From: a virus
Taxonomy: Duplodnaviria > Heunggongvirae > Uroviricota > Caudoviricetes
Reading direction: 5' to 3' (one strand)
DNA: 4,969 bases
IMG/VR virus record: IMGVR_UViG_2690316166_000007
In this document: positions 1 through 4,969 of the stretch, piece after piece
How the letters are laid out: each line of letters starts with the position of its first letter
Position numbering within the stretch: the first letter of the stretch is position 1
Notes under the pieces: model-generated
What the model saw: the letters and a program-made list of their open reading frames with translations, nothing else
The model's database searches: none
What the model was told of the DNA's origin: nothing
Translations under genes and position numbers: made by a program

Positions 1-107
1 TACACTAAATCAGTAAGTTGGCAGCATCACCGAAGTGGTAAAGAAGATAATAAAGAATAATATTTAGGGTTATAGGTCTTAGCCCATTTTAAATGGAAGG
101 CAGACAT

Positions 108-462
108 NNNNNNNNNNNNNNNNNNNNNNNNNNNNNNNNNNNNNNNNNNNNNNNNNNNNNNNNNNNNNNNNNNNNNNNNNNNNNNNNNNNNNNNNNNNNN
201 NNNNNNNNNNNNNNNNNNNNNNNNNNNNNNNNNNNNNNNNNNNNNNNNNNNNNNNNNNNNNNNNNNNNNNNNNNNNNNNNNNNNNNNNNNNNNNNNNNNN
301 NNNNNNNNNNNNNNNNNNNNNNNNNNNNNNNNNNNNNNNNNNNNNNNNNNNNNNNNNNNNNNNNNNNNNNNNNNNNNNNNNNNNNNNNNNNNNNNNNNNN
401 NNNNNNNNNNNNNNNNNNNNNNNNNNNNNNNNNNNNNNNNNNNNNNNNNNNNNNNNNNNNNN
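108..462. other. Run of 355 N (assembly gap or masked sequence); content unknown
   Basis: Continuous n characters; flanks are AT-rich. Any ORF read through it is uninterpretable. Confidence 0.95.
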
Positions 463-513
463 CATGCTCCAGTGTGTATCTTTTTTGGGAGGGATTGGCT
501 GCAAATAATCAGA

Positions 514-954
514 NNNNNNNNNNNNNNNNNNNNNNNNNNNNNNNNNNNNNNNNNNNNNNNNNNNNNNNNNNNNNNNNNNNNNNNNNNNNNNNNNNNNNNN
601 NNNNNNNNNNNNNNNNNNNNNNNNNNNNNNNNNNNNNNNNNNNNNNNNNNNNNNNNNNNNNNNNNNNNNNNNNNNNNNNNNNNNNNNNNNNNNNNNNNNN
701 NNNNNNNNNNNNNNNNNNNNNNNNNNNNNNNNNNNNNNNNNNNNNNNNNNNNNNNNNNNNNNNNNNNNNNNNNNNNNNNNNNNNNNNNNNNNNNNNNNNN
801 NNNNNNNNNNNNNNNNNNNNNNNNNNNNNNNNNNNNNNNNNNNNNNNNNNNNNNNNNNNNNNNNNNNNNNNNNNNNNNNNNNNNNNNNNNNNNNNNNNNN
901 NNNNNNNNNNNNNNNNNNNNNNNNNNNNNNNNNNNNNNNNNNNNNNNNNNNNNN
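514..954. other. Run of 441 N (assembly gap or masked sequence); content unknown
   Basis: Continuous n characters. Separated from the first N run by a readable island of exactly 51 nt (463-513). Confidence 0.95.
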
Positions 955-1068
955 ACCATCCTTAGAGTTAAATAATTGAATGTCCACTCCAGCAGTTGGT
1001 TGTATATATTTTGAAAGCTCTTTCTTGAACTTGTTAATATATTTATCTTTGTTTTCTTTGTTGGTCAT
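955..1068 (-). CDS. Visible N-terminal 38 codons of an AT-rich gene of unknown function that runs leftward into the N runs; true length and stop unknown
   Basis: ATG at 1068-1066 on the - strand opens a frame (MTNKENKDKYINKFKKELSKYIQPTAGVDIQLFNSKDG) that stays open to the gap edge. The 51-nt island and the left flank are also open in this frame if gap lengths are taken literally, but gap lengths in scaffolds are estimates. Lys/Asn-rich, low-GC composition contrasts with the nin genes to the right. No obvious Shine-Dalgarno sequence. Confidence 0.4.
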
Positions 1069-1155
1069 TGGTTAGATCCATAGTTCTGGCTGTGATTAGG
1101 TGAAAGTATACAAGGTTTTTAAAGCGAAGATCACTGTTTTGGCTTCAAGATAGTT

Positions 1156-1184
1156 TTGATTTATCGTAATCAATCCGCCATAAT
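1156..1184 (+). promoter_or_regulatory. Candidate sigma70 promoter reading rightward into the nin operon
   Basis: TTGATT (1156-1161), 17-bp spacer, CATAAT (1179-1184); 4/6 and 5/6 matches to consensus. Lies in the divergent intergenic region about 50 bp upstream of the small-ORF start. Sequence match only. Confidence 0.3.
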
Positions 1185-1221
1185 CCTCTCATCGGAGCCT
1201 GAACAACTCCGGTGACTTCTG

Positions 1222-1245
1222 CGCATTTAAGGGGACTTAAATGCG
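1222..1245. promoter_or_regulatory. Perfect 10-bp inverted repeat with 4-nt loop (CGCATTTAAG-GGGA-CTTAAATGCG); candidate operator or RNA hairpin covering the small-ORF start codon
   Basis: Arms 1222-1231 and 1236-1245 are exact reverse complements. The right arm contains the ATG at 1241-1243 and the loop contains the purine-rich candidate RBS. No U-tract follows on either strand, so it is not a typical intrinsic terminator. Confidence 0.35.
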
Positions 1246-1336
1246 ACCACAATCTGAACTCATCACCTTGTCACAGATGCAGAAATGCACCTGCGATTTT
1301 CTGCATTCTGCGGTTTCCGTTAGGGAGGCCGTATGA
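1241..1336 (+). CDS. ylcH: Small ORF (31 aa, MRPQSELITLSQMQKCTCDFLHSAVSVREAV), positional equivalent of DLP12 ylcH; stop overlaps the ybcN start (ATGA)
   Basis: ATG at 1241 preceded by AAGGGGA 5 nt upstream; in-frame TAA immediately upstream limits the ORF to 31 codons. TGA at 1334-1336 overlaps the ybcN ATG at 1333-1335. Assigned by position; I do not remember the ylcH sequence. Below the length cutoff of the supplied ORF track. Confidence 0.4.
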   Translation: MRPQSELITLSQMQKCTCDFLHSAVSVREAV

Positions 1337-1788
1337 CTCTGCCAGTAGACGGCATCAAACTCCATCGCGGTAACTTCGCGGCCATCGGCCAGCAGATTCA
1401 GCCATTGCTGGATGCCGGGCAATGCTTACGCCTGCAGGTTAAGCCGTGGCGCGAGAAGCGCAGCCTGTCGCAGAACGCGCTCAGCCACATGTGGTACACG
1501 GAGATCAGCGAATATCTCATCGCCCGCGGCAAGACCTTCGCTACGCCTGAGTGGGTCAAAGACGCGATGAAGCACACCTATCTCGGCTACGAAAGCAAAG
1601 ACCGTGTAGATGTCGTGTCCGGCGAGGTCACCACCGTCCAATCCCTCCGCCATACGTCAGAGCTGGAAACCGGCGAGATGTACATCTTCCTGTGCAAAGT
1701 CGAAGCCTGGGCGATGAATATCGGCTGCCACCTGACAATTCCGCAGAGCTGTGAATACCAGCAGCTGCGCGATAAGCAGGAGGCGTAA
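1333..1788 (+). CDS. ybcN: YbcN, DLP12-type prophage protein (151 aa); recalled as an Orf/NinB-family recombination mediator with reported DNA base-flipping activity
   Basis: ORF 1333..1788 from the track; strong SD GGGAGG (1323-1328) 4 nt before the ATG. Protein matches my recollection of E. coli K-12 YbcN, and the downstream gene order ninE-ybcO-rusA-ylcG-quuD-nmpC matches DLP12. Confidence 0.85.
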   Translation: MTLPVDGIKLHRGNFAAIGQQIQPLLDAGQCLRLQVKPWREKRSLSQNALSHMWYTEISEYLIARGKTFATPEWVKDAMKHTYLGYESKDRVDVVSGEVTTVQSLRHTSELETGEMYIFLCKVEAWAMNIGCHLTIPQSCEYQQLRDKQEA

Positions 1789-1958
1789 TGGCTACACCGC
1801 TTATTCGTGTCATGAACGGGCACATCTACAGAGTATCAAATCGTCGTAAGCGTAAGCCTGAGCTGAAGCCATCCGAAATACCAACACTGCTCGGATATAC
1901 CGCTAGCCTGGTTGATAAAAAATGGTTGCGACTGGCAGCAAGGAGGAATCATGGCTGA
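1788..1958 (+). CDS. ninE: NinE-family small prophage protein (56 aa, [56 protein letters not shown])
   Basis: ATG at 1788 overlaps the ybcN stop (TAATG); SD AGGAGG at 1778-1783. Hand translation runs to TGA at 1956-1958. Basic, nin-region position. Too short for the ORF track. Confidence 0.8.
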   Translation: MATPLIRVMNGHIYRVSNRRKRKPELKPSEIPTLLGYTASLVDKKWLRLAARRNHG

Positions 1959-2241
1959 TTTGAGAAAAGCAGCGCGTGGTCGGGAATGCCAGGTAAGAAT
2001 CCCTGGCGTATGTAATGGCAATCCTGAAACGTCAGTACTGGCACATATCCGGCTGGCTGGATTGTGCGGTACCGGTATCAAACCGCCAGACCTGATTGCC
2101 ACCATTGCATGTTCTGCCTGTCACGACGAAATCGACCGCCGCACATATTTTGTCGATGCTGAGTATGCAAAAGAATGCGCGCTGGAAGGTATGGCGAGAA
2201 CGCAGGTTATCTGGCTGAAAGAGGGGGTTATTAAGGCGTGA
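1951..2241 (+). CDS. ybcO: YbcO (DUF1364), Cys-rich putative zinc-binding nuclease of the prophage nin region (96 aa)
   Basis: Track ORF 1912..2241 begins at a TTG. I prefer the ATG at 1951 ([14 protein letters not shown]...) because AGGAGG at 1941-1946 sits 4 nt upstream and the ATG overlaps the ninE stop (ATGGCTGA). Conserved Cys/His positions; matches recalled K-12 YbcO. Confidence 0.85.
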
Positions 2242-2600
2242 ATACCTACAGCATCACATTACCCTGGCCTCCGAGCAATAACCGCTATTACCGCCATAAT
2301 CGCGGGCGCACACACATCAGCGCAGAAGGGCAGGCATACCGCGATAACGTCACCCGAATCATTAAAAACGCAATGCTGGATATCGGCCTGGCTATGCCAG
2401 TGAAAATCCGTATTGAGTGCCACATGCCGGATCGCCGTCGCCGTGACCTGGATAATCTGCAAAAAGCCGCTTTTGACGCACTCACCAAAGCAGGTTTCTG
2501 GCTGGATGATGCTCAGGTCGTTGATTACCGCGTTGTGAAGATGCCTGTTACCAAAGGTGGGAGGCTGGAACTGACCATCACCGAAATGGGGAATGAATGA
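2238..2600 (+). CDS. rusA: RusA Holliday-junction resolvase (endodeoxyribonuclease RusA, 120 aa)
   Basis: Track ORF 2238..2600 with GTG start overlapping the ybcO stop (GTGA). Protein [24 protein letters not shown]...[25 protein letters not shown]... matches recalled E. coli RusA, including the acidic catalytic region. Confidence 0.9.
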
Positions 2601-2737
2601 TGTTTGAGTTTTATATGGCAGAACTTCTTCGCCACCGCTGGGGGCATCTGCGCTTATATCGTTTCCCCGGTTCTGTTTTGACCGATTACCGAATACTGAA
2701 GAATTACGCCAAAACCCTGACAGGAGCAGGAGTATGA
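2597..2737 (+). CDS. ylcG: YlcG-like small prophage protein (46 aa, [46 protein letters not shown])
   Basis: ATG at 2597 overlaps the rusA stop (ATGA). Hand translation ends at TGA 2735-2737. Position matches ylcG of DLP12; too short for the ORF track. Confidence 0.6.
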
Positions 2738-2822
2738 AGTCAGAGATAACAATCAACTAATACTGTTTTGTTGATTTTTGCTTGTAATTGGCGTTCTGGT
2801 CTGATTTTTGTGGAGTAAGTTG

Positions 2823-3206
2823 ATGCGTGATATTCAGATGGTTCTTGAGCGTTGGGGAGCGTGGGCGGCTAATAATCATGAAGATGTGACCTGGTCGTCC
2901 ATTGCCGCCGGTTTTAAGGGATTAATTACTTCAAAAGTAAAATCTCGCCCGCAATGTTGTGACGATGACGCGATGATTATTTGCGGGTGCATGGCCCGTC
3001 TGAAAAAGAACAACAGCGATTTGCACGATTTATTAGTAGATTATTATGTAGTCGGTATGACATTCATGTCACTGGCAGGTAAGCATTGCTGCTCTGATGG
3101 TTATATCGGGAAAAGGTTACAGAAGGCTGAGGGCATAATTGAAGGGATGTTAATGGCATTAGATATCCGGTTAGAGATGGATATCGTTGTTAATAACTCT
3201 AATTAA
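2823..3206 (+). CDS. quuD: Late-gene antiterminator Q of a lambdoid prophage (127 aa), DLP12 QuuD-type
   Basis: Track ORF 2808..3206 starts at a TTG. I prefer the ATG at 2823 ([22 protein letters not shown]...) with GGAG at 2812-2815, 7 nt upstream. Cys-rich segments ([21 protein letters not shown]). Position is immediately before the porin moron and terminator structures. Confidence 0.85.
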
Positions 3207-3239
3207 TATGCCAATTGTTTACTAAAAATTATTAAAAAT

Positions 3240-3257
3240 GGGGCGTTGCAACGCCCC
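3240..3257 (-). terminator. GC-rich perfect hairpin (GGGGCG-TTGCAA-CGCCCC) flanked by A/T runs; candidate intrinsic terminator for leftward (porin) transcription
   Basis: The 18-nt palindrome is preceded on + by ATTAAAAAT, so on the - strand the hairpin is followed by AUUUUUAAU. On the + strand it is followed by CAAAAAUAAA, which is not a U-tract. Confidence 0.4.
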
Positions 3258-3323
3258 CAAAAATAAAGGGTAATATATAACAGAAGGTTTATATAGTTAG
3301 AAGCAAGGTTGTGCTCCTAAAGG

Positions 3324-3379
3324 AAGTGGCTTGAGGGAGCCACTTATATGTTGGGGAGGCAAAGCCTCCCGCAACATAT
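3324..3379. terminator. Two adjacent stem-loops just downstream of the porin stop; candidate bidirectional terminator (tR'-like for the + strand, porin terminator for the - strand)
   Basis: Hairpin A: 3324-3331 / 3338-3345 (AAGTGGCT / AGCCACTT, 6-nt loop). Hairpin B: 3346-3360 / 3364-3379 (about 15 bp, one bulged G, AAA loop), followed on + by CUUUUAG. On the - strand the same structures follow the porin TAA (3397-3395) and precede CCUUUAGG. Confidence 0.45.
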
Positions 3380-3394
3380 CTTTTAGTAATCAAA

Positions 3395-4599
3395 TTAGAA
3401 CTGGTAAACCATACCTACAGCAACGATATCATCGGTAGCAACGCCAGATGCTTTCGTGAAATCGCTCTTATCAATCAGGTTGATTTTGTAATCAACAAAA
3501 GTGGACATATTTTTGTTGAAGTAATAGGTTGCACCTACATCAATATATTCAACCAGGTCCTGATCACCCCACGCACCCAAGTCTTTTCCTTTAGATTGCA
3601 GGTAAGCAACGGACGGACGCAGACCGAAGTCGAACTGATATTGTGCAACTACTTCGAAGTTTTGTGCTTTGTTGGCAATATGGTTATTACCAAAAACAGT
3701 CATGTTCTGGGTTTCAGAATAGGTGGTAGCCAGATAGATGTTGTTCGCATCATATTTCAGACCAGCTGCCCATACTTCAGCATTTTGACCAGATGCATTC
3801 AGGCTGTTGTTACCGTAGATAACCTGATTATTAGTGCGGTCAGATTTAGCATAGGTTGCACCTACACCGAATCCTTCATACTCATAAGTAGTGGAGAAAC
3901 CGAAACCATCACCATTAGCTTCAGTTACGTCAGTGCGGTCATTTTTACCCTGATACTGAGCAGCAAAGTTCAGACCATCAACCAGACCAAAGAAGTCGTT
4001 GTTACGATAAGTTGCAACACCAGTGGTGCGACCAGTCATGAACACATCTGTTTGAGTCCAAGTGTCACCACCGAATTCTGGCAGGACGTCAGTCCACGCA
4101 CCGATGTCGTATGCTACACCGTAGTTACGGCCGTAATCGATGGAGCCGTAGTCACCGAATTTCAGGCCAGCGAAGGCAAGACGGGTTTTATCTTTGGANN
4201 NNNNNNNNNNNNNNNNNNNNNNNNNNNNNNNNNNNNNNNNNNNNNNNNNNNNNNNNNNNNNNNNNNNNNGTAGTCACCGAATTTCAGGCCAGCGAAGGCA
4301 AGACGGGTTTTATCTTTGGAGGAACCTTGAGATTCAGCGCGGTTGCCTTTGAATTCATATTCCCACTGACCGAAACCAGTCAGTTGATCGTTGATTTGGG
4401 TTTCACCTTTGAAGCCAAGACGGGCATAAGTAGTATCACCATCATCTGCATCATTAGAGGAGAAGTAGTGCTTAGCATTAACTTTCCCGTACAGATCCAG
4501 CTTGTTACTGTCTTTATTATAAATTTCAGCTGCCTGAGCAGACATCGCCATCAGTACTGATGCAGCTACAGCAGAAATTGCCACTGTTAATTTTTTCAT
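3395..4599 (-). CDS. nmpC: General outer-membrane porin of the OmpC/OmpD/NmpC family (prophage moron); reading frame split in this assembly by an N gap plus a duplicated 51-mer
   Basis: ATG at 4599-4597 gives [23 protein letters not shown] / [17 protein letters not shown]..., a signal peptide with AQA cleavage motif. The C-terminal part (track ORF 3395..4045) ends ...VGMVYQF with the terminal Phe typical of beta-barrel OMPs. Removing the 122-nt gap-plus-duplicate joins ...[14 protein letters not shown] to [27 protein letters not shown]... in frame, giving 361 codons including the stop. Confidence 0.8.
4148..4320. repeat. Perfect 51-bp direct repeat (4148-4198 and 4270-4320) abutting both edges of a 71-nt N run (4199-4269); most likely an unmerged contig-end overlap
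   Basis: GTAGTCACCGAATTTCAGGCCAGCGAAGGCAAGACGGGTTTTATCTTTGGA occurs twice, ending exactly at the gap start and beginning exactly at the gap end. 51 + 71 = 122 nt, not a multiple of 3, which accounts for the apparent frameshift in the porin. Confidence 0.85.
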
Positions 4600-4969
4600 C
4601 GTGAGCCCTTTTTTTGAACTATTATTAAAAAATGATGTCACTGCGCGATAAATATTCATCTAATCAATGTGATTATTTCAAGATGTAAGTTTTGGTTTCT
4701 CGTTTGATTTGTGAAGTAGATCTCTATTTTTATCTGAACTTTTTTCTATCGAATCCTATTCATGGCTCTTGGCTGAATAAAAATAAATCTATTAGCCAAT
4801 TTATATTAACGGCTGTTATTTATAAGTGCTCTATAATTTGAAGGTTCAATTTAAACCGGCTAAAAATAACACTGGAAATTATTTGTTGGTTATTTGTTGG
4901 GATTTGCTTATGTATTTGTAGTGGTGTTTTCAATACTCGGTAGCATTCTCGCAAATATCATTTAGTGGT
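4600..4969 (-). promoter_or_regulatory. AT-rich upstream region of the porin gene; promoter and regulator sites presumably here but not confidently located
   Basis: About 370 bp with no ORF of meaningful length. Contains an exact tandem 11-bp repeat TTATTTGTTGG x2 (4879-4900) and a TATAAT hexamer on the + strand (4832-4837) without a convincing -35. Confidence 0.3.

Follow-up and report, generated by a model that had tools for sequence, protein, structure and literature searches.

A 71-nt N run between two copies of a 51-mer in a prophage porin gene is very probably an assembly artefact

Background

Two described systems are closest to the locus reported here. The first is the Lc/NmpC porin of E. 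coli, which is known as Lc from phage PA-2 and as NmpC from the DLP12, or qsr', prophage. In the K-12 reference, the DLP12 copy of this porin is interrupted by IS5. Names for the protein vary: it is 'porin OmpC' in RefSeq and 'outer membrane porin protein LC' or 'OmpD' elsewhere. The second is a class of spurious or 'negative' gaps in de Bruijn-graph scaffolds, in which overlapping contig ends are left unmerged; related behaviour of SOAPdenovo2 has been described (PMC5368935). The -K parameter of SOAPdenovo2 is the overlap of adjacent contigs (PMC5368935).

Our analysis concerns a stretch of 4,969 nt, here called the window, from the IMG/VR virus record IMGVR_UViG_2690316166_000007. It carries a porin gene of the Lc/NmpC type that holds a run of Ns between two copies of one 51-mer. 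Very probably, the N run and the second copy of the 51-mer were introduced by assembly and scaffolding, and the real locus carries a single 51-mer within an intact gene of 1,083 nt. The porin gene itself is almost certainly intact and ordinary.

Results and discussion

The same 51-mer abuts both edges of the gap

The 51-mer GTAGTCACCGAATTTCAGGCCAGCGAAGGCAAGACGGGTTTTATCTTTGGA is present at 4148-4198 and again at 4270-4320, and the two copies are identical at 51/51 positions. The N run between them (4199-4269) is 71 nt long, which gives a start-to-start spacing of 122. A sequence-only reading of the window had reported the same 51-mer on both edges of a 71-nt N run, and a repeat search confirmed its coordinates and lengths. 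In window positions 955-4969, this pair is the only direct repeat of at least 20 nt that the search returned. The copies cannot be extended, because the inner side of each adjoins Ns. The chance of an exact 51-mer repeat is 4^-51 per position pair; an exact 51-nt repeat that abuts both gap edges cannot be chance.

The features of the interrupted gene are given below. They refer to five comparison loci, of which L001-L004 are from complete E. coli genomes and L065 is from CP049179.1, a complete chromosome of 4.88 Mb.

3395-4198, minus strand: 3' part of the porin gene, with codons 94-360 and the stop codon; 100% identical to L065
4148-4198: left copy of the 51-mer, probably the end of the left contig; porin residues 94-110, minus strand; maps to L065rc 4754-4804
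4199-4269: N run of 71 nt, very probably a spurious scaffold gap; the true inter-contig distance would be -51 nt (an overlap), as judged from the flanks in L001-L004 and L065
4270-4320: right copy of the 51-mer, probably the start of the right contig and redundant; maps to the same L065rc 4754-4804
4270-4599, minus strand: 5' part of the porin gene, with codons 1-110; predicted signal peptide at residues 1-23 and mature start at A24

Collapsing the duplicate restores a complete porin

Removal of 4199-4320 from the window yields what we term the collapsed sequence. It contains an uninterrupted minus-strand ORF of 1,083 nt that encodes 360 amino acids, with the stop at 3395 and the ATG at literal position 4599. 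The in-frame 360-aa porin precursor proposed from the letters alone was recovered in this way, and the peptide across the join was reproduced exactly. When the window is read literally, start to stop spans 1,205 nt, and the porin is frameshifted because of the extra 122 nt (122 mod 3 = 2). The 5' part continues in the wrong frame, and the 3' part becomes a separate ORF. The sequence-only reading had warned that the literal locus would be miscalled as a frameshifted pseudogene; the ORF list shows split, out-of-frame fragments.

The collapsed protein matches the Pfam family Porin_1 (PF00267) with 510.6 bits over profile positions 1-337 of 337. It also exceeds the cut-off of the NCBIfam OmpC subfamily model NF007841 (518.1 bits versus 484), and it falls under those of the equivalog models for PhoE (506 < 599) and OmpF (484 < 583). 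Residues 24-360 align unbroken to the solved chains of OmpC, OmpK36, PhoE and OmpF, from residue 1 to the end of each. Because residue 1 of the solved chains falls on query residue 24 in these alignments, residues 1-23 are taken to be a signal peptide, with cleavage predicted after residue 23. The C-terminus (...VYQF) ends in Phe. By its family profile, the solved-chain alignment and the terminal Phe, the collapsed product is a general porin of full length. A role as an outer-membrane channel, or an effect on phage susceptibility, would follow from the family literature.

The exact 360-aa protein is present on at least 1000 contigs in the protein collection (17,488 index blocks). Its source names include 'outer membrane porin protein LC' and 'porin OmpC/OmpD'. 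All ten places examined (10/10) have a context of Q antiterminator, porin and holin/lysozyme. The gene under the gap encodes a prophage porin that is already known and very common. Ten of the loci that we fetched (L061-L070) encode the identical 360-aa porin and show at most 16 nucleotide differences, all of them synonymous, which cluster in a patch of ~140 nt (window 4055-4190).

The gene resides in a lambdoid prophage late region

Window positions 955-3394 are 100% identical to three complete porcine ETEC chromosomes. Gene coordinates were transferred from the annotated relatives L003 and L004, which are 100% identical across the same interval:

1333-1788: ybcN
1788-1958: ninE
1951-2241: ybcO
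2238-2600: rusA
2597-2737: ylcG
2823-3206, plus strand: quuD, lambdoid Q-type antiterminator, convergent with the porin gene

The porin gene (3395-4599, minus strand) comes after quuD on the opposite strand. In relatives, essD, rrrD and rzpD are next, at positions that would fall outside the window. This gene content marks the locus as a prophage late region of the DLP12-like lambdoid kind. Its porin gene is a typical lambdoid "moron" of the Lc/NmpC type, situated between the Q antiterminator and the lysis genes.

A GC-rich hairpin, GGGGCGTTGCAACGCCCC, is found at 3240-3257 between the convergent quuD and porin genes, with A/T runs on either side. It looks like a bidirectional terminator, and it was the sole addition from a scan of 3200-4969 for promoters and terminators. 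More inverted repeats are visible by eye at ~3325-3385, just past the porin stop codon.

Positions 1-31 of the window hold the terminal inverted repeat of IS1 in reverse complement (GGTGATGCTGCCAACTTACTGATTTAGTGTA). The window start coincides exactly with the end of an IS1 remnant in CP049179.1, where a full IS1 is also present ~23 nt past the right end of the window. The window thus resembles a short scaffold with an IS1 copy at either border, of the kind expected in IS-rich drafts of E. coli or Shigella-like genomes.

Contiguous loci carry the 51-mer once

The left flank reaches 51 nt past the point at which the right flank starts in each of L001-L004 and L065. The overlap is exactly 51 nt in 5/5 loci. 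The collapsed gene is 100% identical to L065 over 1,083 nt with no gaps, and the collapsed region 955-4969 (3,893 nt) has 2 mismatches to this locus, both upstream of the gene. In terms of the literal window, CP049179.1 matches 1-107, 463-513 and 955-4198 at 100%, and 4270-4969 with 2 mismatches. The suggestion that the gap represents unmerged contig ends is supported by the 51-nt overlap of the flanks in five loci and by the 100% identity of the collapsed gene in CP049179.1.

The collapsed region of 1,278 nt is found as one piece in 24/25 top-listed complete E. coli genomes, with 99.0-99.5% identity; the exception is H19, in which the porin alignment is split by an annotated IS1. Most of the listed full-length alleles (21/25) align across all 1,083 nt without gap opening. 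In the set of complete E. coli genomes, the porin region is detected at 6,039 places in 3,736 genomes, with at most 5 per genome. The 51-mer is single-copy in 64/64 fetched loci that carry it. Exact scans found it in 54 metagenomic contigs and, among species-representative genomes, in 2 complete E. coli genomes, with one copy in each contig or genome.

In the cluster of this protein, several porin entries labelled 'partial' (283-356 aa), from Shigella sonnei and from E. coli drafts, are located on contigs of just 3.8-5.3 kb. Because these entries sit on such contigs, the porin region appears often to be fragmented or repeat-bounded in short-read assemblies.

A genuine duplication is very unlikely

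The main alternative is that a real 122-bp tandem duplication, consisting of the 51-mer and the next 71 nt, frameshifts and inactivates the prophage Lc/NmpC porin, and that the Ns hide part of it. The literal layout is compatible with such an event: 51 and 71 add up to 122, and 4321-4391 could equal the hidden 71 nt. Moreover, inactivation of prophage porins does occur, by IS1 in H19 and by premature stops or indels in some metagenomic alleles. A 122-bp tandem duplication should produce a junction in which CAGTCAGTTGATCGT is followed directly by GTAGTCACCGAATTT, which can also be written as GTTGATCGT followed by GTAGTCACC.

However, none of the 5,426 complete E. coli genomes gave a contiguous match to a 90-nt synthetic query of this junction at E<=1e-22, and the 30-nt core of the query was present in 0/70 fetched loci. 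A search at a laxer E-value is uninformative, as it merges two 45-nt halves in their normal order into one place. The absence of a contiguous junction from both the complete genomes and the fetched loci argues against a duplication. The other N runs of the scaffold are inexact, hence the value of 71 cannot be claimed as exact. In a k=51 graph, the contigs flanking a tandem duplication would presumably end on different 51-mers, namely the first and the last of the unit. Finally, a duplication at the scale of a read is normally assembled rather than gapped. We therefore regard a real duplication as very unlikely.

The collapsed gene is very unlikely to be a chimera

If the two contigs had come from two porin copies in different prophages, the collapsed gene would be a chimeric join that is absent from the source. 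Two observations are compatible with this explanation. Relative to L003 and L004, the closest E. coli neighbours, the allele type of the window switches at ~4055, which is ~100 nt before the gap, and the differences cluster at 4055-4190. Many genomes also hold 2-5 such porin genes. The window allele is a mosaic of L003-type and L002-type DNA sequences, and the protein that it encodes is very common.

The same mosaic is nonetheless contiguous in CP049179.1, with the gene at 100% and 2 mismatches in 3,893 nt. The match of L065 to the whole collapsed gene shows that this mosaic exists as a real haplotype in unbroken sequence and is not the product of a chimeric join. The allele switch also lies inside the left contig, away from the join. 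A chimera is very improbable. Comparison of the alleles suggests that porin genes of this type are recombinant mosaics under strong purifying selection.

Insertion and masking fit the gap poorly

It is barely conceivable that the N run hides a real insertion in the porin, such as an IS element, with the 51-mer as its target-site duplication. IS1 is known in the porin of H19, and the source appears rich in IS1, an end of which forms window positions 1-31. Target duplications of enterobacterial IS elements range from a few to ~14 bp, with 9 bp for IS1 and 4 bp for IS5. The repeat of 51 bp is far above these lengths. Next to the Ns, where IS terminal sequence would be expected, there is pure porin sequence on either side, in agreement with the references up to the final base. 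An IS insertion was rejected on these two grounds; the N run is also just 71 nt long.

Two other N runs in the window provide additional information about how its gaps were sized:

108-462: N run of 355 nt; CP049179.1 has 319 nt, and the gap size appears to be an estimate
463-513: island between the N runs, exactly 51 nt, outside the porin gene; 100% match to L065rc 1161-1211
514-954: N run of 441 nt; CP049179.1 has 349 nt, and the gap size appears to be an estimate

Compared with CP049179.1, the three N runs of the window exceed the true length by 36, 92 and 122 nt, respectively. Over-long runs of this kind resemble gap estimates from paired reads, unlike a mask that preserves length. A deliberate length-preserving database mask over real sequence is accordingly an extremely improbable source of the Ns: one collection used does, by its description, contain a few stretches masked to N, but the other two N runs are 36 and 92 nt too long between flanks 100% identical to CP049179.1, the 51-nt island and the 51-nt overlap are assembler-type signatures, and a mask would still need a real 122-bp duplication, which the junction search does not support.

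The sequence missing under 108-462 and 514-954 is AT-rich (33-36% GC). In L004 and L065, the sequence that corresponds to these N runs within 108-954 holds hypothetical prophage genes. In CV839-06, an IS1A is carried inside the interval that matches window 108-954.

A model for the origin of the gap

The reading that we prefer is that the N run and the second 51-mer arose from an unmerged overlap. Two contigs of a short-read de Bruijn-graph assembly, with k or an edge overlap of 51, would share one 51-nt end node. A scaffolder would have set these contigs in the correct order and orientation, and would have put in an estimated gap of 71 Ns rather than merging the 51-nt overlap. The number 51 recurs, in the island at 463-513 as well as in the overlap, and may well reflect the k, or the edge overlap, of the assembler. 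One counterpoint to this model is that the left end of the window extends just 31 nt into IS1, and not 50-51 nt. We infer both the k of the assembler and the reason for the graph break at the porin.

Porin paralogues had been proposed as the cause of the break. The 51-mer is matched in 1376/5426 complete E. coli genomes, at one place in the median genome and at no more than two places in any. The chromosomal genes ompC, ompF and phoE were rejected as the cause, given that the 51-mer is not common to them (1376/5426 genomes match). Because they are universal chromosomal porins that lack the 51-mer, they cannot fork a k=51 graph. The proposal thus fails for ompC, ompF and phoE, and a prophage gene of the nmpC/Lc type is left as a possible cause. 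Only another prophage-borne copy of the nmpC/Lc type could fork the graph here.

Allelic variation next to the 51-mer is relevant to this question. Among loci that carry the 51-mer, the base before it (window 4147) is invariant, while the base after it (window 4321) varies, with G in 51 loci and A in 13. On the minus strand, 4321 is the third position of a codon, and the change is synonymous. If an A-type allele were co-resident, the exact 51-mer would be the last k-mer common to both copies. The most likely cause of the break would be a different base at the synonymous position 4321, carried either by another prophage copy of the porin or by a variant population of reads. However, the A-type alleles seen differ at 4133 too, and a simple two-allele model then predicts a shared node of 65 nt and an overlap of 37 nt, not 51. 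A simple fork with A-4321 alleles was rejected on this basis as anything beyond a partial explanation. With ~6 polymorphic sites per 100 nt, the coincidence at 4321 is merely suggestive.

Conclusions

The meaning of this finding is practical rather than biological. A literal reading places a split or frameshifted porin pseudogene and a false 51-bp duplication in the record. If identity of length k is recognised on either side of a short N run, such gaps can be closed computationally, and fewer false pseudogenes would be called in draft genomes of the Escherichia/Shigella type.

The collapsed gene resembles that of the Lc/NmpC porin in encoding a 360-aa precursor with a full-length Porin_1 match. 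The gene position is likewise the same: the gene is downstream of ybcN-ninE-ybcO-rusA-ylcG, has quuD on one side and essD/rrrD/rzpD on the other, and is on the opposite strand. It differs from the DLP12 copy of K-12 in being intact; otherwise nothing substantive distinguishes it from Lc/NmpC. With the chromosomal porins OmpC, OmpF and PhoE it shares the fold family, as mature residues 24-360 align end to end. However, it is located in a prophage late region, its 51-mer is not shared with them at the DNA level, and the protein is under the equivalog cut-offs for both PhoE and OmpF.

The gap, in turn, resembles unmerged overlaps in de Bruijn-graph scaffolds, in that a short N run has identical sequence on either side. 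In the SOAPdenovo2 behaviour described previously, the gap is placed after the overlap and splits the second contig (PMC5368935), whereas here the overlap is explicitly duplicated. As in scaffolds with de Bruijn k-overlaps, the repeat length is odd and k-mer-like (51), and an island of 51 nt recurs in the scaffold. Two further likenesses to de Bruijn spurious gaps are that gap sizes are estimated and unequal to the true distances, and that collapse of the overlap restores perfect colinearity with finished genomes.
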